Assembly (NCBI GenBank): GCA_005223185.1
Contig: NJBN01000007.1
Location: 1 to 64,000 of the forward strand
DNA: 64,000 bases
Reading direction: 5' to 3'
DNA from: a candidate division LCP-89 bacterium B3_LCP
GTDB taxonomy: Bacteria > Electryoneota > B3-LCP
How positions within the stretch are numbered: the stretch's first letter is position 1; each line of letters begins with the position of its first letter. The notes below the pieces were generated by a model. That model had not been told where the DNA came from. It did no database searches and saw only the letters and a list, made by a program, of their open reading frames with translations. Shown one piece after another: positions 14,166-56,524 of this stretch. Position numbers and translations under genes: made by a program.

Positions 14166-14430
14166 ACTATTTGGAGAGGTAGCGCGGGGGCTTGCTCCCG
14201 CCATGTAAATTCGTGCCGCTGACTCCCCGCAGTCAGCGGCTATAACAACCGCAGAGTACGGGGACTCTGCGGCACTGGAATAGCCTCTCACCGCCCGGAA
14301 ATGTCCGAAGGACTCCTATGGAGAATTTCCAGGCTAGTCTTATGCTGTCCCGCTAAAGCGGGACGCTTAAAAACCTTTACGTCCGTCAGATGACGGACAG
14401 AAATTGAATAGCCCGGGAATTCATTCCCGG
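14166..14430. repeat. Mosaic palindromic repeat, copy 2 (modules E, D, B, A, C), the most complete copy
   Basis: E hairpins gccgctgact-ccccgc-agtcagcggc and ccgcagagt-acgggg-actctgcgg; D ccgaaggactcctatggagaatttccaggct; B gtcccgctaaagcgggac; A gtccgtcagatgacggac; C cccgggaattcattcccggg. Confidence 0.75.
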
Positions 14431-14566
14431 GTAGGGGATTGGTAACAGAACCTTCAGTCCGGTACTGATTATCGGATGACTCGAGCCCAGGGTATGTTAC
14501 GAAATCACAAGGAGTAATCTAACCATCAACCTGAAAAACCTGAACAAAACCGAACTACAAGACCTG

Positions 14567-19589: not shown

Positions 19590-19750
19590 GGTATTTTCAT
19601 TAGTTATGCTGCCAACTCCCTGCAGTTGGCAGCACTGCCTCAGAATCAATTCTGAGGCTTAAACTGATTCAAGAACACTGAAGTGATCTTCTTAGCGTCC
19701 TACTTTAGTGGGACAGCATTTTTATAGCTCGGGAATTCATTCCCATGTCT
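19590..19750. repeat. Mosaic palindromic repeat, copy abutting the tmRNA 3' end (E-like hairpins, B, C)
   Basis: gctgccaactccctgcagttggcagc; gcctcagaatcaattctgaggc; gcgtcctactttagtgggacagc; cgggaattcattccc ends 8 nt from the tmRNA 3' terminus. Confidence 0.65.
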
Positions 19751-19757
19751 AACTTTG

Positions 19758-20114
19758 TGGAGACGGCGGGAATCGAACCCGCGTCCGAAATAGTGACCGA
19801 AGGACCCGCTACAGGCTTAGTCGCTGTTTAGTTCTCGCTAACCATCAAATCCAGCGACAGATCAGATGGGAAGCCAGCCTCGGAATTCTCACGTCAGGCA
19901 TTGAGGCGCTGCTTGACGCCAGCCCATCATTATGACGCCCGCATCCCAACTCGATGGGCAAGAATCGGGTCGGACGTAGCCGCTTCTTTATTAAGCAGCT
20001 AAGGCATAGCCGTGATTATCGGCATTTGTGATTGTGGCGGGTTTATACGGGGTCACGCCATCCCCGACCTGCTGATCCAGCTTCCTCCTATCCCGTCGAA
20101 ACCAAGTCGTCCCC
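19758..20114 (-). ncRNA. ssrA: tmRNA (SsrA)
   Basis: 5' GGGGACGACTTGGTTTCGACGGGAT and 3' GGTTCGATTCCCGCCGTCTCCAC(A); acceptor stem includes the G3-U pair; internal tag reading frame ...ADNHGYALAA then TAA TAA; about 357 nt. Confidence 0.9.
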
Positions 20115-20312: not shown

Positions 20313-21731
20313 ATGCACATTAGAAACAGAATGATCACAGTGATCATAGGTTGCTGCCTGTTATTGGCAGCGGGGATCCCGTTGCAGACAGGTTACGCTT
20401 ACACCCACACAGTTTTAGTGGAAGAAGCAACTGCTACCTGGTGCGGCTACTGCCCCAGTCATGTATCGGCTCTTGATGAGATGTACTCTTCGGGGCTCTA
20501 TGATTTCTACTATGTTACGCTTGTAACCGACATGAATACTTATGCTTACAATCGAGTTATCGGTGAATTAGGTGTAGGTGGCTATCCGACTTCTTTGGGC
20601 GACGGTGGATACCAGCAGGTCGTCGGTTGGGTACCGAACAGTTCATCCATGATCAACATGGTCAACAATTGTGGCAATCGTGCAGTCGCAGATATCGATC
20701 TTAATCTGGGCGTCACCTGGGATGGAAATGCACAGATCAGTATAGATCTCGATGTGATCAATAACGATCCATCCATGTACTTAGGACATCTGCACGCGTA
20801 TGTAACAGAAAAAGATTCCCGCTGGTACGTCTCAGGCAATCAGTATCACTTTGCCATGATCGGCGATTATGCCTTAAATGAAGATATCTTCGTTGCCGCA
20901 GGCGGCACTGCACAATATTCAACCACCTGGAACGGTAACACCTATGGATTCGGCGATATCGTTCCCGAAAATATCACAGTCATCGTTGCAGTGTTCAGTG
21001 GTGGAAATGTCTGGACAGATGAAACAGTAGCTATGCAGCCCGGTCTTCCGGTTGGCGACGTAACTGTTACTCTGACACCTTACGGCACACCTATCGTAAT
21101 TCCGGCTAACGGTGGTGCTTTCGATTTCAACATTGCGGTAACCAACAATGAAACTTCACCCTGGTCATTTGCAGTCTGGACGGACGTTACTCTGCCAAAC
21201 TCATCCATCTTCGGTCCCATTATCGGGCCGTTGACAATTACCATACCGGCAACAACCACCATCAATCGTGACCGTTCTCAGAGCATTCCTGGTGGAGCTC
21301 CTGCAGGTACTTATTCCTACAACGCCTATGTAGGCAACTACCCGGATGATATCTGGAACTCTGATACCTTCACTTTTGAAAAATCTACTGTTGGCGATGG
21401 GTCTGATTTCATTGGGGAATGGATAACTTCCGGTGATTCATTCACTACTGGAAATGTAGCATCTGTAGAAGATATTACTTTACTACAAAACTACCCCAAT
21501 CCCTTCAACCCAGAAACAACTATCAGCTACATCATACCGGAAGCAACTGATGTAAACCTCACTGTTTATGACGTAAGCGGTCGGCAGGTCGCAGAATTAG
21601 TTAGCGGCTACCGGAATGCCGGTCATCACGACGTAACCTGGGATGCTTCTTCCCTATCGGCTGGTGTTTACATATATCGTCTATCGGCTGGTGAGTTCAA
21701 CGCCAGTGGAAAGATGGTGCTTCTCAAGTAA
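20313..21731 (+). CDS. Secreted protein with N-terminal thioredoxin-like CxxC domain and T9SS C-terminal sorting domain
   Basis: Strong RBS aaaggag; signal peptide; EEATATWCGYCPSH motif; C-terminus QNYPNPFNPETTISY ... KMVLLK. Confidence 0.7.
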   Translation: MHIRNRMITVIIGCCLLLAAGIPLQTGYAYTHTVLVEEATATWCGYCPSHVSALDEMYSSGLYDFYYVTLVTDMNTYAYNRVIGELGVGGYPTSLGDGGYQQVVGWVPNSSSMINMVNNCGNRAVADIDLNLGVTWDGNAQISIDLDVINNDPSMYLGHLHAYVTEKDSRWYVSGNQYHFAMIGDYALNEDIFVAAGGTAQYSTTWNGNTYGFGDIVPENITVIVAVFSGGNVWTDETVAMQPGLPVGDVTVTLTPYGTPIVIPANGGAFDFNIAVTNNETSPWSFAVWTDVTLPNSSIFGPIIGPLTITIPATTTINRDRSQSIPGGAPAGTYSYNAYVGNYPDDIWNSDTFTFEKSTVGDGSDFIGEWITSGDSFTTGNVASVEDITLLQNYPNPFNPETTISYIIPEATDVNLTVYDVSGRQVAELVSGYRNAGHHDVTWDASSLSAGVYIYRLSAGEFNASGKMVLLK

Positions 21732-28315: not shown

Positions 28316-31276
28316 ATGAACATAAAACATCCTAAAGTTCAAATGAACATGACATGTTTCATTTGGATTCTTATAGCCCTATTCACAGTTCTAACCCGAC
28401 CTACGGACGCACAGCCGTCGATCGGTCTTGATGCTATCGAAGCGATAGATGAATTGCCTCTCTACATACAGGGGATAACTGCTGACCAGGTCTCCAGCTC
28501 GGATCAAACCGGCGGAAACAGCGACCGCAGTGGTTACCTCTACCAGAATGATTCGTTGTACGTCATTTTCGATAAAGAAGGACCGGGGTGTATTTACCGG
28601 ATGTGGGTTCGCGGCACTACTACTTCTGCAAACCGAAGGATGGTCTTCTATTTCGATGGTGAAGAAGAACCGACCATAGATGCTACCGTGCAACAGCTTT
28701 TTTCAGGGCTATACAGCCCAATGTTAGAACCTCTGGCTGGCGGGATCAATGTTTCCGAGGGTGGAAACTACTGTTATTATCCGATAAAATATGCAGAACA
28801 TTTAAAGGTCGCATTTATAGATGACGTCGAACCTCACCAGATCTGTTACAAAACCTACCCATCAGCAACAGCTTTGACGTCGTACGATCCTGCCGAATTG
28901 CCCACCAACGTTTTATCGCAGTGGCAGAATACAGGTACAGATCCTAAAGACCCAACCGGTAATAATTATTCCAACGGTTCGCTGACAGTTGGGATCAGTT
29001 CAACTGAGACTATATTTACCTATTCCGGCAGCGGCAGCATAACCGGCATTCATTTCACACCTTCGCCTTTAACTTCCAGCATGCTGGGAAGCCTCAGGCT
29101 GCGTTTTTATTGGGACGACAGTATCGATCCACAGGTGGAATGTAGCTTTGGAAGCTTCTTCGGAAATTCATTGAGTACTTCTAATGTTGACGGTCTGTTA
29201 GTCGGTGTCACCGGCGACGTTTATTACTGCTACTTTCCCATGCCTTTCTGGGATAACGCCCACCTTGACGTATATAATTCTTCCCTGAATCAAGCTGTCG
29301 ATATAGATTATGAGATCTCCTACAAGGCGGATATTCCTCCAGAAGACCATGGTTACTTTACCGCCAAGCTGCTTGAATTCACACAATCTGTTCCCGGGCA
29401 GGATATGTTGTTTGGCGAACTGTTCGGTCATGGTAATTTTGTAGGTATGGTCGTTACAATCAGCTCTTCACAATGGCCGGATTTTTTAGGCGGTGATATG
29501 CGCATCTACCTGGATGGTCAAGCCAGTCCTTTTTTCCAGGGCACCGATTTTGACGGTGATTTCAACGCAGGAGATTATTTCGCTTCAGGGATCTTCTCGC
29601 TGCCCATTCACGGAGCACCAGCTATACAAACTGGTTTTGAAAGAAAGATATGCACCTATCGCTTCATGCTTGGTGATCTGATACCGTACGGCAACTCCAT
29701 TCGCATTCTGGCTGAACACGGTCATGATAATCTGGAATTGATAGAATATGCAGCTACGATTTATTCCTATAACCACAGCGAAGTCGCGCTAATTCTGTCC
29801 GATCATCTGGACGTGGGCGACCCGGCAGAAGAAGCGACACACAGTTATGTTAACCAGGGAACAGTTTCGCAGGAAACGCATTACTACGCCTACCCCGGCA
29901 CCTACGATGATGAGTACTTCAGTGATACTGGATATATTATAGAAGGCGCCGCATCCTTCACCGCAACCATAGATCCTTATAATGAAGGCGTTCGCTTGGT
30001 GCGCAGGAGAGATGCTCTTCATTTCCCGCAATATGCGCAGGTTATAGTAAACGGCGATACTGTCGGCACCTGGTGGGATATGGAGAATAACTACTACAAA
30101 CGTTGGGCTCTATCTTCATTTGAAATACCGCCACAATATACACAGTCCCTTTCTGAGATTGACATTTCTATAGCCTCCGGCGATAGCGCTGACTGGACGG
30201 AATATTTCTACTGGATTTATTCGCATATTCCACCCCGAGAAGACCTGCTACCACCGAATCAGGTAACAAGCGTATCCATCGAGGCACTGGAAAATGGATC
30301 GGAGCTATTCCTGCAGTGGGATATCCCCTTTGATAATTCCGGCGTCTCCGGATATAGAATATATAGGGACGTTACCACCGGAGTACAAGCAACTGAAGAA
30401 TTCTTAGTCGGGCAAACGGTGATGACGACATACACTGACACCGGCTTGATACCTGGAACCCAGTATTTCTACTTAGTGAGCGCTGTTGATTACAGCAGCA
30501 ATGAAGGTGAAGCTTCAGTTATCACAACTCAGATTACCGCAATAAATTTTATTTACGAGGCAGAAGAAATTGAGAGATTCTTGGGGAATTCCGGTGATCC
30601 TTACATTGTCGAAAACATGATGCAATACGGTGAAAACTGGAGTAATCAGCATCAATTGCTCTACTATTCTAACAATGTGGGTGATTACTTCAACATTCCC
30701 ATAGAAGCAGCTACGGCTGACACCTATCTCATCTCAGGCTATTGCACTATGGGATCGTTCTACGGTAATTTCAGACTGTGGGTAAATGAGGAACAAGTCA
30801 GCGACTACATATACCTTTACGACCCAAATACCATACGAAGTCCGCTGATTGAATTCGGATCGCACTATCTTGAAGAAGGTGAAAATGAATTCTCCTTCCA
30901 GGTTACCGGAAAAAACGTTGCCAGCACTGATTATTGCATCGGAGTTGACAACTTATTGATCACGCCATATTCGCTATTATCCGTGCCACCCTCTGCGCCG
31001 AACTCAACTCCTAATGAGTTCGGATTATCGCAGAATTTCCCCAACCCATTCAACGCCAGTACCCGCATCGCCTTCACTCTGCCCGTAGCAGGAAAAGTTC
31101 GCTTGACTATCTATGATATAGGAGGCCGTCTGGTAAGCAGGCTTCTGGATGGACGATTAACAGCAGGACAACAGAACATCACCTGGAATGCACAGGATTT
31201 TGCTTCTGGTATATACTTTGTCAGGTTAGAACAAGAAAGCAGAAAAACCACGCGTAAGATGGTGCTGATGAAATAG
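28316..31276 (+). CDS. Large secreted multidomain protein (beta-sandwich glycosidase-like domain, FN3 domain) with T9SS C-terminal sorting domain
   Basis: Signal peptide; FN3-like segment PPNQVTSVS ... SGYRIYRD; C-terminus QNFPNPFNASTRIAF ... KMVLMK; assignment of the N-terminal domain is tentative. Confidence 0.7.
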   Translation: MNIKHPKVQMNMTCFIWILIALFTVLTRPTDAQPSIGLDAIEAIDELPLYIQGITADQVSSSDQTGGNSDRSGYLYQNDSLYVIFDKEGPGCIYRMWVRGTTTSANRRMVFYFDGEEEPTIDATVQQLFSGLYSPMLEPLAGGINVSEGGNYCYYPIKYAEHLKVAFIDDVEPHQICYKTYPSATALTSYDPAELPTNVLSQWQNTGTDPKDPTGNNYSNGSLTVGISSTETIFTYSGSGSITGIHFTPSPLTSSMLGSLRLRFYWDDSIDPQVECSFGSFFGNSLSTSNVDGLLVGVTGDVYYCYFPMPFWDNAHLDVYNSSLNQAVDIDYEISYKADIPPEDHGYFTAKLLEFTQSVPGQDMLFGELFGHGNFVGMVVTISSSQWPDFLGGDMRIYLDGQASPFFQGTDFDGDFNAGDYFASGIFSLPIHGAPAIQTGFERKICTYRFMLGDLIPYGNSIRILAEHGHDNLELIEYAATIYSYNHSEVALILSDHLDVGDPAEEATHSYVNQGTVSQETHYYAYPGTYDDEYFSDTGYIIEGAASFTATIDPYNEGVRLVRRRDALHFPQYAQVIVNGDTVGTWWDMENNYYKRWALSSFEIPPQYTQSLSEIDISIASGDSADWTEYFYWIYSHIPPREDLLPPNQVTSVSIEALENGSELFLQWDIPFDNSGVSGYRIYRDVTTGVQATEEFLVGQTVMTTYTDTGLIPGTQYFYLVSAVDYSSNEGEASVITTQITAINFIYEAEEIERFLGNSGDPYIVENMMQYGENWSNQHQLLYYSNNVGDYFNIPIEAATADTYLISGYCTMGSFYGNFRLWVNEEQVSDYIYLYDPNTIRSPLIEFGSHYLEEGENEFSFQVTGKNVASTDYCIGVDNLLITPYSLLSVPPSAPNSTPNEFGLSQNFPNPFNASTRIAFTLPVAGKVRLTIYDIGGRLVSRLLDGRLTAGQQNITWNAQDFASGIYFVRLEQESRKTTRKMVLMK

Positions 31277-34074: not shown

Positions 34075-34192
34075 GATTGTAAGGGTAAACAGATTTTTAC
34101 GGAGCAGTCCGTCGGCTGACGGACGAAAACTCATTAAGCGTCCCACTTCAGTGGGACAGCATTAATTAGCGAGGAAATTCATTTCCTCGCGG
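34075..34192. repeat. Mosaic palindromic repeat, copy 3 (modules A, B, C)
   Basis: gtccgtcggctgacggac; gcgtcccacttcagtgggacagc; cgaggaaattcatttcctcg. Confidence 0.7.
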
Positions 34193-47000: not shown

Positions 47001-47718
47001 TCCCTATGAGGATGAAATTACAGGAATAATCGCTCCTATGTGGCTTGATTTATGGAATCCCACATCAGAAACCGGGAAGATATGCAGTTATTACGATGAT
47101 GTTAATGGAAAGCTCTACATAGAATATAACGGTGTCTCAAATGACTTCTCGCCCATCTTCAAGGAAACGTTCCAGATTGTACTCTTCGACCCAACAGAAC
47201 AACCAACCCTGACCGGCGATAGTGAATTCATGTTCTACTATCGAAGTCTATCCATCTTTGGCCTTCAGTACTGTTCTGTTGGTCTAGAGAGTCCAGATCA
47301 AAACATTGGCATCGAGTACTCATATGGTATGACTTTCGCATTCACAGTAAATGGGATTGAAGACAGCTTAGCCATCAAGTGGACCACCGATCCACCACCC
47401 AGTTTCCTGTACGTACCACCGCTACCTGATCCCGGAACGGTGATGCAGATACCTGATGAGTTCACCTTCGCAGAGCCTTACCCCAATCCGTTCAATCCAA
47501 CAACAATGCTGAGGTTCGCTATTCCGGTTGCAGGAAAGGTGGAACTGGAGATATTCAACGTCAGGGGACAGCGCGTAGCAGAACTTTACAGCGGTAAAGT
47601 AAACGCTGGCTGGCACCGCTTCGAATTTGACGGATCAAACCTGGGATCCGGAATCTACTTCGCCCGTTTAATTTATCAGGATCAACCCACGGTGCATAAA
47701 TTACTCCTGGTCAAGTAA
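44080..47718 (+). CDS. Peptidase C25 (gingipain-like) family protein with T9SS C-terminal sorting domain
   Basis: C25 catalytic-domain pattern (DFVLLAGDETVLP ... YVNHRGAGWSFGW ... TGIGCGVGLF); C-terminus PYPNPFNPTTMLRF ... KLLLVK; 1212 aa. Confidence 0.75.
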   Translation: MCIPRMTFLHIVVAVVTCSFLTSVSNALVPIPKEMVEMRISGNPANGSIIHLDFAEYWQSAGEITGDEALSFWVTLPDLGQPSAKVRVFTSDGILHTISECAQIGEPAIIRGVRVASVTIHPVIQGDSGSEAVEEMDIMISASGTGINEVYQDRRSQAFDGIISSFVVNPPGVNATDDFEQEHMLIICPDFAQEIITPFAEWKRRKGLEVTLSTLTEIGITADDFEGMKDYIQEAYDTWLNPPDFVLLAGDETVLPVRADWTDDPHTMFSTASVPGTYLDDNYFACVDGSDFFPDIILARWPLPNEGYSYAYVSAKTMRYEMAPTLDQTDWYQHSAVTAQGPLYDPTNLTQRETKLYTKDLMLNFGFAEVDTLFDPYSPDQLVQWVNDGLSYVNHRGAGWSFGWAGNNFYIDHVLELQNSFMLPVVTGIGCGVGLFGDPGICFGEAWMWVVGTMTNHRGAIAFIGPGWNTHTFYNDSLDIGLYESIFVESEPRIGASLIDSKLFMYDAFDDYIPLDPDIEEILRVAFNQYYLFSDPELKPYNNVPAGLQTAETIPVALGQGSFSLTFTIQDGAGLPFEGAQVCLYHPEDFQSVDLTDANGEVELDWDTNTESSFVYFTVTAHNHAPIVDSIAVIGDQAYVLHYDFELDDSMGGNGDGGISPGESADWIETVRNWGLNDASEVNAILTSLSPTAIVIQNSSYFGDIPAEATMMGTPNFVISVDPENYTVGDSLEFQIDVSDALDSCWTSYVDVPLVTPILSYIYAAPDIYTNGLIDRGETCEMFIGVYNNGFVDIDDAVLELHTDDPYIEIIDGTIDIGPFNAGSMYLSYYASPQDSFIVSASLYAPMYYEAEFWMKISSEQATYFYEDSVSFVLPIGQIFEGDPTFDSLETYFGYESLDTLYEECPTYEWFEIDPDSGGPGYVLPFSYETQTLKIELPFTFTYWGEDFDSLTVSADGWIMPGVTSAVAPDYQHFPYEDEITGIIAPMWLDLWNPTSETGKICSYYDDVNGKLYIEYNGVSNDFSPIFKETFQIVLFDPTEQPTLTGDSEFMFYYRSLSIFGLQYCSVGLESPDQNIGIEYSYGMTFAFTVNGIEDSLAIKWTTDPPPSFLYVPPLPDPGTVMQIPDEFTFAEPYPNPFNPTTMLRFAIPVAGKVELEIFNVRGQRVAELYSGKVNAGWHRFEFDGSNLGSGIYFARLIYQDQPTVHKLLLVK

Positions 47719-49561: not shown

Positions 49562-49627
49562 CTGAATAGTTGATCGAATAGGTCAATCAAAAAGGGGGCT
49601 GTCCCAAAAATCGACTAGTCATCCTGT

Positions 49628-49740
49628 CCATAGGACTCCTTCGGAGAGCTCGCTGAAAGCGAAGCGAAGAATCTCTTGTTCTTCTGTGAATCCCGTAGTC
49701 GGGGTCGCCTGCGACCATGGTGTCCCTGACCCCGACGAGA
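49628..49740. repeat. Composite repeat: D module (reverse) plus F element with left inverted repeat
   Basis: ccataggactccttcgg; gcgaagcgaagaatctc; core ccgtagtcggggtcgcctgcgaccatggtgtccctgaccccgac. Confidence 0.7.
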
Positions 49741-49753
49741 TACATTCCAGTAC

Positions 49754-53699: not shown

Positions 53700-55004
53700 T
53701 TATGACGTCCTATTCTCGTGAATCCAGGTCAATATTTTTATTTCCCCATCAGTCAATTCCTTCTGGCGGCGCCTCATCACGGATCGAGCGGTCTCCAGAG
53801 TTGGTTTTAAGGGATACTTAGTGAGTTTTTCCGCGCCGCCCCAGTTGAATGAAGGCACGTAACGAGGCGGAAAACCGGCTCCGAATATCATGCTTCCCAC
53901 ACCCATTACAGTTCCTGTATTGAAGACAGACCCGATGGCGCTCTTGGAATGATCCCCCATCATCAAACCAACGAAAAGCTGTCCGGTATCCACTAACTTA
54001 GATCCTACCTGAACTTTGACGGGAGTATAATTGTTTTTAAGGTTGGACGTTTCCGTTCCCGACCCCAAATTGCACCAGGATCCTATATACGAATGCCCTA
54101 AAAAGCCACCGTGCTGTTTGTTGGAATAATCCTGTATTATCGAAACCGACACTTCGCCGCCCATGCGGCTCTGTTCGCCGAAGCAGCTACCCCTGATGTG
54201 CGACAGCGGTTTCACCTGAGATCCTGCACCTAAATACACGGGACCTTCTATAATTGAGTTATAACCAATGATGACTCCTTCATCCGCTACAATCGGCCCG
54301 TTTGAGGCGTCAAGCACCACGCCGGACATTATATCTGATCCATCAGCTAAATAGATGTCTTCTTCGGAAACCAGCGATGCATTCTTATGAACATTTCCGT
54401 CTAATTGCCCCAGCGAGCGCAATTCACGAGCTTCAATATCGATCTGCTCGTTCATTGCACCGATGGCCTCCCAGATGTAGGTTACCAAAACACCAATATT
54501 GGTCAGCGCTTCCGTAGTCGGGGTCGCCTGCACGCCTGGTGTCCCTGACCCAGACAGTTTCACTGCCTCTATTGAATTAAACTCATGCAGATCAAGTGCC
54601 GTTCCTGCTTCCCATCCTGAAGGTGGATTACCACAGAAAGCGATAACTCTACCGTCAGAAACTAACGCATCACCTGGCGCGAGATCGAGAACACGCTTGA
54701 AATTCACACCCGGTATCAAACAGCCGTTAATCCATAGCAGATCTATTCCTTTTTCAGGAGAAGGCTTCGCACCGGGATAATTCCCGGAAAGATACGGCCT
54801 GGTAAAATGATACTCTGCCGCCTGTGGAAAATACGCCAGTATTTTTTCCCGCAGAGTACGAATACCACAACGCAAATCCCATACCGGCCGTGTCAATGAT
54901 AGCGGCTCGGTGGTTATGGCAGCTTGATCTTCAAATAAGACGATAGCTCCAGGTGATTTCACCAAAGTTGATCCTTGAATTGTATATGATCGTGTAATTG
55001 TCAT
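53700..55004 (-). CDS. Putative sugar nucleotidyltransferase-like protein with C-terminal left-handed beta-helix (hexapeptide repeats)
   Basis: N-terminus AIVLFEDQ ... LTRPVWDLRCGIRTLREK; C-terminal hexapeptide repeats; carries an in-frame copy of the F repeat core (SGSGTPGVQATPTT); first ATG used (track ORF starts at TTG 55016). Confidence 0.7.
   Translation of the reverse strand: MTITRSYTIQGSTLVKSPGAIVLFEDQAAITTEPLSLTRPVWDLRCGIRTLREKILAYFPQAAEYHFTRPYLSGNYPGAKPSPEKGIDLLWINGCLIPGVNFKRVLDLAPGDALVSDGRVIAFCGNPPSGWEAGTALDLHEFNSIEAVKLSGSGTPGVQATPTTEALTNIGVLVTYIWEAIGAMNEQIDIEARELRSLGQLDGNVHKNASLVSEEDIYLADGSDIMSGVVLDASNGPIVADEGVIIGYNSIIEGPVYLGAGSQVKPLSHIRGSCFGEQSRMGGEVSVSIIQDYSNKQHGGFLGHSYIGSWCNLGSGTETSNLKNNYTPVKVQVGSKLVDTGQLFVGLMMGDHSKSAIGSVFNTGTVMGVGSMIFGAGFPPRYVPSFNWGGAEKLTKYPLKPTLETARSVMRRRQKELTDGEIKILTWIHENRTS
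54512..54555. repeat. F repeat core inserted in-frame within a CDS
   Basis: ccgtagtcggggtcgcctgcacgcctggtgtccctgacccagac; about 90% identical to the intergenic cores at 49693..49736 and 55054..55097. Confidence 0.65.
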
Positions 55005-55028
55005 TCTGAGCCCCAATTTATTGGGGTG

Positions 55029-55372
55029 AAGAATCTCTTTCTATCACGCGAATCCCGTAGTCGGGGTCGCCTGCGCCTATGGTGCCCCTGACCCCGATAT
55101 GAGACTCTTCGCTTCGCTCAGAGTGACACTCTCTGCATATACTCATATTGCCCTTTTTTTCAAGGGGGAGTAAGAGGGATAAGAATAATCCCCTAAAAAC
55201 CAACCACTACGAATAATATGAAAGACACCGCCCGAAAATGTCCGATGGACTCCTATGGAAAATTTCCAGGCTAATTTTATGCTGTCCCGCAAAGCGGGAC
55301 GAAAATAACTTGGAGCGTTCTACTTCAGTAGGACTGCATTGCATTAGTCCGGGAATTTATTCCCGGATGACA
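55029..55372. repeat. Composite repeat: F element with terminal inverted repeats (MITE-like) plus D, B and C modules
   Basis: gaagaatctc ... core ccgtagtcggggtcgcctgcgcctatggtgcccctgaccccgat ... gagactcttcgcttcgc; then tccgatggactcctatggaaaatttccaggct, gtcccgcaaagcgggac, tccgggaatttattcccgga. Confidence 0.7.
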
Positions 55373-55375
55373 CCC

Positions 55376-56524
55376 CTACGCCAACAACTTAGCCAACAGA
55401 CTCATTTCCTGATAGATAGCACCATCCTGACAGACTTCATCACAGCAGCCGCATTTTATGCACTTATCGTAGTCTATCCGCGGTATTTCATGATTCATTT
55501 CCATGGCTTTTTCAGGACAGTTATCTACACAAAGCTCACAAGCGGTGCATAATTTGGGTTCTGCTTTGGGTCTGATCCATACCAATCGGCTCAGGCTCTT
55601 CTGCACGAATTTCGGCAGTCTCTCAATGCGGCTGACGTCCGGCTGAACAAAGTCATCGATAGTAAAATCGGATAACTCACCTCCAATAAAAAGATTATCT
55701 TCAGCGCCATCCCAGAGTCCAGCCTCTTCCGCTGCTTGAAAGATCGGCAGGTCAGACTTATTCATGTTCATAATTCTGGCGGCAGCGTTATCTATCGCAA
55801 AGGCATCTTGCGATACCAATATGGTACCTACATGCTTTGGTTTCCCTGCTGAGGGACCGTTGCCTTCCATGCCGATAACTGCATCCATAATATTAAGATC
55901 AGGCTTAACATGCTGATAAACTGCAACGATATATCTTGAGAACGGCAACGCTGCCGGAGCTAAACTGTGAATGTGCCCCTTGCGGAATCCAGGTACCGTT
56001 CCGAACATGTTCTTCACCGCGCCGGTCATTCTGGTCAGCGTATGAGTTTTCAATTTCGGCAAATTAATGATCCCATCCGCTTCCAAAGCAATGCAGGAAA
56101 TATTAACATGGCCTGCCAAAGTTGAAAAGCTTTTAGTCCTCCCCGATTCGAATGATACCAGCTCTATTCCTAAGCGCTTTGCTGCTTCTGCCATGCCGGT
56201 TTTCTGCCAGTATTTTTCGAGACTTTTGGGTTGTCCAGCCGGACTATCCCCTAAAATCACCTTGCCGCCGCAATCTAAGACGATTTCCCCCACGGCAGTA
56301 ATAACTTCTGGATGGGTCGTTACTGCCTTTTCCGGCTCCTTGGCAGAAAGCATGTTTGGCTTCAGCAGGATTCTATCGCCTGACTTAATGAATTGCTCCG
56401 GGTGTCCCGCCAGTTCCAAAGCCTGCCGGATGGCACTGCGAACGTTTGCAGGATCATAATCCTGGCAACGAACCAGGGCAGTTCCATGCCGCGAAGTCGA
56501 AGATATATGTTCGGATACAGCCAA
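55376..56524 (-). CDS. DUF362 domain protein with C-terminal 2x[4Fe-4S] ferredoxin domain
   Basis: DUF362 N-terminal pattern (GDRILLKPNM); C-terminal CTACELCVDNCP and CIKCGCCDEVCQ. Confidence 0.8.
   Translation of the reverse strand: MAVSEHISSTSRHGTALVRCQDYDPANVRSAIRQALELAGHPEQFIKSGDRILLKPNMLSAKEPEKAVTTHPEVITAVGEIVLDCGGKVILGDSPAGQPKSLEKYWQKTGMAEAAKRLGIELVSFESGRTKSFSTLAGHVNISCIALEADGIINLPKLKTHTLTRMTGAVKNMFGTVPGFRKGHIHSLAPAALPFSRYIVAVYQHVKPDLNIMDAVIGMEGNGPSAGKPKHVGTILVSQDAFAIDNAAARIMNMNKSDLPIFQAAEEAGLWDGAEDNLFIGGELSDFTIDDFVQPDVSRIERLPKFVQKSLSRLVWIRPKAEPKLCTACELCVDNCPEKAMEMNHEIPRIDYDKCIKCGCCDEVCQDGAIYQEMSLLAKLLA

Follow-up and report, generated by a model that had tools for sequence, protein, structure and literature searches.

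The Ssn family of GIY-YIG nucleases, which act on single-stranded DNA (ssDNA), and the Ssn-related motifs (SRMs) were reported by Chenal et al. (Nat Commun 2025, PMC11893778). SRMs are oriented repeats that form hairpins and measure 20-50 nt; a GTC immediately ahead of the palindrome and a C directly behind it are conserved, and in Neisseria these are the bases critical for cutting and binding. They flank, often on both sides, the genes of 94-aa nucleases made of a single GIY-YIG domain (cd10448). The Neisseria repeat, NTS (CGTCATTCCCGCGMAVGCGGGAATCYRG), contains dRS3 as its palindromic heart, and the nuclease SsnA binds the hairpin only as ssDNA and not as RNA, in a strand-specific manner, and cuts a few nucleotides upstream. 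The NTS-ssnA-NTS arrangement has been likened by the same authors to an insertion sequence (IS), and compared with REP-associated tyrosine transposases (RAYTs) and repetitive extragenic palindromic (REP) sequences (PMC11893778). The present work deals with a repeat, the F element, found in 64,000 nucleotides from the candidate division LCP-89 bacterium B3_LCP (assembly GCA_005223185.1, contig NJBN01000007.1, positions 1 to 64,000 of the forward strand); this whole stretch is called the window. This repeat is genuine, non-coding and of recent insertion. It is probably a composite element acting at the DNA level and belonging to the NTS/SRM kind, in which variant SRMs form the arms and the central F unit plays the part of an RS element.

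Two other described systems are close to this locus. In Neisserial intergenic mosaic elements (NIMEs), inverted dRS3 repeats flank RS elements of 50-150 bp (Bentley et al. 2007, PMC1797815); NIMEs have been reported as Neisseria-specific and are found in long arrays (PMC1797815). The REPs of the GTAG super-family carry an unpaired GTAG beside a palindrome with a stem of 6-13 bp, and their loops are mostly of 2-4 nt, with some families having 9-27 nt (Di Nocera et al. 2013, PMC3733652). REPs are found at convergent, unidirectional and intragenic sites, and intragenic REPs encoding about 20-30 residues have been documented (PMC3733652).

The inverted repeat at 55029-55110, to which the first-pass annotation had drawn attention, is part of a 130-nt nested palindrome, module C (54999-55128, + strand), located between a DUF362/Fer4 gene and an alt-GlmU gene. 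The strings quoted in that annotation are present, and gaagaatctc (55028-55037) and gagactcttcgcttcgc (55101-55117) are indeed reverse complements with one mismatch; the proposed unit of about 80-90 nt was too short, since the inverted repeat reaches from 54999 to 55128. Module C is formed by a left arm, a 7-nt spacer, the F unit and a right arm, that is, by a pair of inverted 27-nt hairpin arms (TGTCAYTCTGAGCGAAGCGAAGARTCTC) around a GC-rich F unit of 57-60 nt, and its outer pairing, obtained by inverted-repeat search, joins TGTCATTCTGAGC (54999-55011) to GCTCAGAGTGACA (55116-55128). The left arm (54999-55037, + strand) is an SRM-like hairpin motif, (T)GTCATTCTGAGC...GAAGAATCTC, with a small hairpin (CCCAATTTATTGGGG) in place of the GCGAAGC tip. 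The right arm (55101-55128, - strand) is complete, its reverse complement being TGTCACTCTGAGCGAAGCGAAGAGTCTC (55128-55101), and it shows a compensatory stem change, ACTCT/AGAGT against the usual ATTCT/AGAAT. The F unit of this module (55045-55104, + strand) contains GTAG at 55057-55060, directly followed by an 8-bp stem (TCGGGGTC, 55061-55068, with GACCCCGA, 55090-55097) that closes a 21-nt loop; the loop holds a weak inner stem of 5 bp which includes G-T pairs. The GC content of the F unit is 62-65% (65% in module C), compared with 46% for the window.

Three copies of the F unit lie within the 64 kb, and the composite is duplicated. The 18-mer GTAGTCGGGGTCGCCTGC occurs at 49695, 54514 and 55057, always on the + strand, and is absent from 100 shuffled sequences, which puts it far above chance; a profile made from the three copies returns exactly three matches in the window (E 1e-15 to 3e-18), the next best having an E value of 2.8. 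Copy A (49659-49742, + strand) is a decayed composite between convergent genes for an ABC transporter and a TonB-like protein. Its F unit (49683-49742) has GTAG at 49695-49698, and its core stem (GTCGGGGTC, 49698-49706, with GACCCCGAC, 49728-49736) measures 9 bp; the core palindrome described in the first-pass annotation is thus present in both copies, but with this length only in copy A and with 8 bp in the flagged copy C. The string once described as an extended left arm of copy A (gcgaagcgaagaatctc) does stand at 49659-49675, but the sole part of this arm that can be held certain is its 3′ half (GCGAAGCGAAGAATCTC, 49659-49675), which matches a profile built from 238 arms of other metagenomes with an E value of 2.9e-5. 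The right arm is reduced to a remnant of 5-8 nt, GAGAT... Copies A and C are 86% identical over 70 nt and have the same distance of 19 nt from arm to GTAG, so that the composite was copied as one unit, and not the core alone. A candidate for the missing 5′ half of the arm in copy A (49618-49658, + strand) starts with GTCATCCTG (49618-49626), followed by a 32-nt insert before the 3′ half; this assignment is uncertain, and GTCATCCTG gives an E value of 49 with the foreign-arm profile, which is not significant alone. The 32-nt insert holds a near-palindrome, TCCATAGGACTCCTTCGGA, common to another repeat family.

The comparison with the NTS and the other SRMs rests on the arms. The window arm is an oriented hairpin of about 27 nt, (T)GTC-ATTCT-GAGCGAAGCGA-AGAAT-C(TC), in which the upstream GTC and the trailing C are kept. 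Aligned with the NTS, C-GTCATTCC-CGCG-MAV-GCG-GGAATC-YRG, it reads T-GTCATTCT-GAGCG-AAG-CGA-AGAATC-TC, and the frame common to both is GTCATTC...GAATC. It differs from the NTS in its AT-richer stem and loop and in its GCGAAGC tip; its host belongs to the candidate phylum LCP-89 (FCB group), and the window has no ssn gene. A further difference is the centre of the module, which is here a defined, GC-rich hairpin tagged with GTAG and also found by itself. As in the NIMEs, inverted arms surround a centre (of about 63 nt in module C) and the module is clustered with other repeats, in this case with two further families in a spacer of about 430 nt; the window has single units and this small three-family mosaic, and the GC pattern is reversed, the centre being GC-rich and the arms AT-richer. 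Since NIMEs are defined in Neisseria, the likeness of module C to them is a functional one only.

The arm, unlike the F unit, is widely distributed. Its 21-mer ATTCTGAGCGAAGCGAAGAAT was found in at least 120 metagenome contigs and 45 viral contigs, nearly always as tGTCATTCTGAGCGAAGCGAAGAATCtc. In these loci the arm is a hairpin with an ATTCT/AGAAT stem, followed by a tandem G-A and then by GCGAAGC. The 5-bp stem is fully paired in 27 of 38 variant arms (9.6 expected), and therefore covaries; the ACTCT/AGAGT pair of the window is among the 27. The foreign-arm profile recognises the right arm of module C over 55128-55100 (E 1.4e-9, 33.8 bits) and both halves of the left arm (54998-55011, E 0.02; 55027-55038, E 0.87), and arms with replaced or extended tips are also present elsewhere (L169, L087 and the right arm of L251). 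Among the 238 arms of these loci, neighbouring arms face each other in 37 pairs, the other two arrangements being seen three times each, and the centres between facing arms measure 13-109 nt and differ from locus to locus. Single arms are also common in other genomes.

Three further observations concern these foreign loci. Half-arms, GTCATTCTGAGC plus 9-14 nt, are repeated in tandem two to three times directly upstream of a full arm in four metagenome or viral loci (L085, L132, L136 and L206). The contigs with the arm 21-mer that are classed as viral (L187-L231, IMG/VR) include some in which the arm lies beside portal or capsid-like genes. In another metagenome, an arm module (L100, 1695-1853) has a 109-nt centre with GTAG and then a 10-bp palindrome, GGGGCGTAGC...GCTACGCCCC, so that a GTAG hairpin centre between SRM-type arms is not unique to the window.

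In a part of the foreign loci, the arms bracket a nuclease gene, as SRMs do. Five loci found through the arm (L224, L156, L090, L070 and L084) have a GIY-YIG open reading frame (ORF) of about 90 aa, preceded by a left arm and followed by a right arm in inverted orientation, and in six loci found through the protein (L238, L244 and L251-L254) arms, frequently with 0 mismatches, enclose a GIY-YIG gene in a unit of about 420 bp. The arm-bracketed proteins have 93-116 aa and contain PF01541 only; in having single-domain GIY-YIG genes of roughly 100 aa flanked on both sides by inverted arms, this system resembles the SRMs. The GIY-YIG query has 3597 homologues, and among the matches listed (120 of 3597) the proteins measure 86-174 aa and come mostly from short contigs. 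At least three groups of arm-linked proteins can be distinguished, namely the L224 set (at least 71% identity), L070 and L084 (each with 50% identity to the query). Counted by eye, the query has Y17 and E64, which correspond in number to the residues mutated in Neisseria SsnA. No gene family is dominant near the arms, and the GIY-YIG link is seen only in small clusters close to them. This relation between the arm and an Ssn-like gene parallels that between REPINs (REP dimers) and RAYTs, in which a single resident enzyme gene is flanked by its own repeats. In L251-L254 (and in L244/L245) the arms show perfect conservation, while the identity of the listed proteins to the query is only 76-82%; from these sequences, the arms look more constrained than the GIY-YIG gene that they flank.

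The modules bounded by arms have no target-site duplications. In 37 arm-bounded modules of other genomes, the flanks show no match in 31 cases, 2 matching nt in five and 4 in one, which is not above a partner-shuffled control, and there is none at module C either. MITEs (miniature inverted-repeat transposable elements) show target-site duplications and derive from DDE-type IS elements. The possibility that the F element is a classical MITE, that is, a deletion derivative of a DDE-type IS that moves by cut-and-paste through its terminal inverted repeats, is accordingly very improbable, even though its inverted 27-nt termini, its small size, the lack of an ORF, its absence from relatives and the longer, gene-bearing units with equal termini in other genomes, which have the look of an autonomous partner, all agree with it. 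The gene inside those longer units encodes a GIY-YIG nuclease of about 100 aa and no transposase belonging to an IS family; both termini are hairpins that fold on themselves and covary, unlike the ends of DDE transposons; and the frequent single arms do not fit such an origin. The same holds for the comparison with the Correia-type bacterial MITEs, with which the F element has in common its small size, non-coding nature, terminal inverted repeats and dispersed copies, but neither the target-site duplication nor a DDE-type IS origin. A DDE-type MITE was largely refuted by the duplication test. The MITE-like architecture proposed in the first-pass annotation is therefore right as to the shape of the F element and not as to its class, to which the core copy without arms described below is also opposed, and the target-site duplications that this annotation suggested looking for at the copy borders did not appear.

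Module C and copy B are absent from the relatives that have the same gene row. The contigs of the closest homologues P0002, P0007 and P0003 (L234, L235/L236 and L237, respectively) were compared over loci of 10-21 kb. The gene order in the three relatives is that of the window: Obg, DprA, DUF362/Fer4, GlmU-like, CtpB, ExbB, two ExbD and TonB, with the ABC transporter convergent to them. The spacer between the DUF362 and GlmU-like genes measures 27, 13 and 42 nt, respectively, compared with about 430 nt in the window. Both module C and the 57 nt of copy B are missing. None of the repeat families of the window was found in these syntenic loci. The first-pass annotation had proposed a comparison with empty sites in related strains: such sites do exist, but at 59-67% protein identity these relatives are too distant for a strain-level polymorphism, and what they document is insertion since divergence.

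Copy B (54504-54560, + strand) escaped the first-pass annotation. It was initially seen in the repeat search as a match at 54485-54554 and is recognised by the profile with an E value of 1.2e-15. It consists of the F unit alone, 57 nt without arms, with GTAG at 54514-54517 and a stem (TCGGGGTC/GACCCAGA) with one mismatch, and it lies antisense to, and in frame within, the alt-GlmU gene. This gene (53700-55016, - strand) is an ORF of 438 codons for a sugar nucleotidyltransferase/acetyltransferase of the alt-GlmU type (TIGR03991, E 3.8e-109), and over the 415 residues that were compared its product is identical to P0001 (TKJ39722.1, from candidate division LCP-89 bacterium B3_LCP). Copy B encodes a 19-residue insertion, KLSGSGTPGVQATPTTEAL, which is absent from 18 of 18 aligned homologues (40-67% identity). 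The F unit is open in four of its six frames; read in the GlmU frame, copy C is interrupted by a stop, unlike copy B. AlphaFold predicts the insert, at residues 130-148 of the 415-residue query, as a coil with a pLDDT below 50, flanked by confident strands, which is consistent with a tolerated surface loop. The palindromic elements of Rickettsia (RPEs) provide a parallel, as they too are palindromic units accommodated in frame in conserved genes, where they add a short tolerated peptide (19 residues in our case); sequence family and host are unrelated, RPE-1 units are longer, and there is a single intragenic copy here.

The presence of the core inside a gene, and its being open in that frame, might suggest that the GlmU-like gene is the source, pieces of which were duplicated to intergenic positions as copies A and C. 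This origin is hardly credible and was rejected. The similarity of copy B to copies A and C ends at both borders of the 19-residue insertion (54504-54560), and the shared segment is exactly the 57 nt which none of the 18 homologues has, so that the gene received the unit and did not donate it. Moreover, a GC content so far above that of the window, and a palindrome that has no role in the conserved fold and falls in a low-confidence loop of the model, do not look like a piece of this gene.

Module C also touches the beginning of the same gene. The ATG deposited for TKJ39722.1 (434 aa), at 55004-55002 on the - strand, falls within the left arm, GTCAT reading ATGAC on the opposite strand. The homologues have N-termini with 6-12 residues ahead of IVLFED, and in the window an AAGGA followed by TTG/GTG at about 54951-54956 resembles a native start. 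Judging from the sequence, the deposited start codon of the GlmU-like gene is probably wrong and the annotated N-terminus repeat-derived.

The independent occurrence of the core raises the possibility that the F unit is a GTAG-tagged REP moved by a RAYT (IS200/IS605-like) encoded elsewhere, the arms being an unrelated enclosing element or a preferred landing place. This explanation concerns the core only, overlaps with the NTS/SRM interpretation and deserves tentative consideration, without being the favoured one. GTAG stands directly 5′ of a palindrome of 8-9 bp in the three copies, within the range of 6-13 bp known for REP stems (PMC3733652), although a GTAG at a single position is weak evidence alone. 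The sites occupied by the copies, convergent (A), unidirectional (C) and intragenic (B), are all known for REPs, and the absence of target duplications and the in-frame intragenic copy are further points of likeness. Copy B shows that the unit moves without arms, and the L100 module associates arms with another GTAG-plus-palindrome centre. On the other hand, the loop of 21 nt is far from the usual 2-4 nt (families with up to 27 nt exist), the three copies all have one orientation and form no REP dimer, and no Y1-transposase-like ORF was seen among the 16 long ORFs scanned, which cover the ORFs of the window incompletely. The arms are linked to a GIY-YIG nuclease and not to a Y1 HUH transposase.

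The first-pass annotation offered a large structured RNA as the alternative to a mobile element. Such an RNA might be a cis-regulatory 5′ leader acting on the GlmU-like gene, an element that stabilises the mRNA or marks a processing site, or a small RNA. The predicted RNA fold of module C is very stable (-65.8 kcal/mol, z -9.0 for the + strand; z -6.1 for the - strand), the G-T pairs of the inner core stem would suit an RNA, and module C is probably transcribed, as it immediately precedes the GlmU-like start within a row of co-oriented genes. Nevertheless, both strands fold about equally well, as is the case with any DNA palindrome. The relatives express the same gene row with a spacer of 13-42 nt and no element, and the three copies have unrelated contexts, one of them antisense inside a coding sequence. 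Neither promoter-like nor terminator-like sites were found in scans around copies A and C, and SsnA, the characterised protein partner of this class of motifs, does not bind RNA (PMC11893778). A known RNA family was ruled out: no Rfam family matches the element, only the tmRNA exceeds the gathering threshold in the window, and nothing meaningful appears in 54900-55420 at E values up to 10. The structured RNA thus found no specific support and is an unlikely explanation. It is important to note that module C, within the Obg-DprA-DUF362-GlmU-CtpB row, is probably co-transcribed and may affect mRNA processing, but as a side effect and not as the reason for its presence.

The F unit, so far, has been found only in the genome of the window. 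The 18-mer gave 66 single matches across 185,579 species genomes, a collection evidently without the genome of the window; none of them extends (at most 16 of 31 flanking positions match), so they are attributed to chance. The full-core pattern had 0 matches in metagenomes, and two viral matches are also due to chance. The concatenated peptides encoded by the F unit had no match at E values up to 10 in a protein database of 5.8 billion sequences, for the size of which they are too short, and the small ORFs across copies A and C had none in the protein collection. A literature search by sequence strings found nothing.

Several points weigh against the NTS/SRM interpretation of the F element. 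Only three copies are at hand. There is no Ssn-like gene in the 64-kb window (tblastn), so that a cognate nuclease in B3_LCP is assumed. The arm-linked GIY-YIG proteins have no NCBIfam or PDB match that would place them in cd10448. The published SRM string, HGTCWYN(0-2)YYVSBRHN(0-5)WNVSBRGN(0-2)RNCYNB, requires a GC-rich stem; it has 0 matches in the window and is failed by the canonical arm, while the Neisseria NTS, used as a control, matches. The loci L251-L254 all adjoin a common RNase E/G-RodA-PBP2-MreDCB row, and the L254 arrangement is seen again in L244/L245; the nuclease genes thus give the impression of vertical inheritance and not of hopping, and no more than two of the places found through the protein are independent. 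Copy B has no arms, and an arm-dependent spread cannot account for it. Finally, Ssn nucleases are not known to mobilise or transpose anything.

With these points taken into account, a composite of SRM-type arms and an F unit continues to be the preferred explanation, and from it we infer a manner of spread in which the arms would fold on transiently single-stranded DNA and be recognised by a nuclease of the Ssn type encoded outside the window. Nicking beside the arms would then lead to repair or recombination, by which whole modules could be copied elsewhere with no duplication of the target. The F unit would also be copied alone, by a separate route, possibly one like that of REPs and RAYTs. 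Within the GlmU-like gene, only a stop-free insertion with a length multiple of three would have survived, as a surface loop.

The surroundings of module C contain other repeats. The spacer between 54947 and 55376 (about 430 nt) holds three repeat families and constitutes a mosaic resembling NIMEs or bacterial interspersed mosaic elements (BIMEs) within what appears to be a single co-oriented gene row. A second family, unrelated to the F element, is present at 2296-2350, 14395-14428, 19689-19744, 34132-34186 and 55309-55364. It is composed of two adjacent hairpins, AGCGTCCCACTTnAGTGGGACAGCA and then TAGCCCGGGAATTyATTCCCGGG, with compensatory substitutions in both stems between copies, and one of its copies adjoins the tmRNA gene (19755-20114, - strand). 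The copies at 14280-14440 and 55215-55375 have an extra 5′ module of about 70 nt, CACCGCCCGrAAATGTCCGAwGGACTCCTATGGAraATTTCCAGGC..., with 91% identity. A 19-nt near-palindrome of this module also sits, inverted, at 49627-49645, within the left arm of copy A; the repeat families are thus nested in one another. The coding repeats at 21492-21545, 31037-31090 and 47479-47532 (YPNPFNP...) are of a different nature, namely C-terminal sorting tails of the type IX secretion (Por_Secre_tail) kind; they fit an organism of the FCB group and are unrelated to the F element.

A broader and still speculative proposal is that the arm-ssn-arm units and their gene-less arm-centre-arm derivatives constitute an undescribed class of mobile DNA, driven by a GIY-YIG nuclease that would recognise hairpin ends, moving without target duplication and carrying short cargo such as the F unit. 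If this were true, the empty sites in the relatives and the duplicated composite would be direct traces of its movement, in a phylum far from Neisseria. The window adds an arm variant which is missed by the published string, although few short DNA motifs are as widespread in environmental metagenomes and viral-classed contigs. It also adds evidence of insertion with respect to syntenic relatives, together with a test showing modules that lack target-site duplications, and a palindromic unit tolerated in frame in a conserved enzyme of cell-envelope precursor synthesis. With regard to annotation, ORFs crossing such modules are repeat-derived and not protein-coding.

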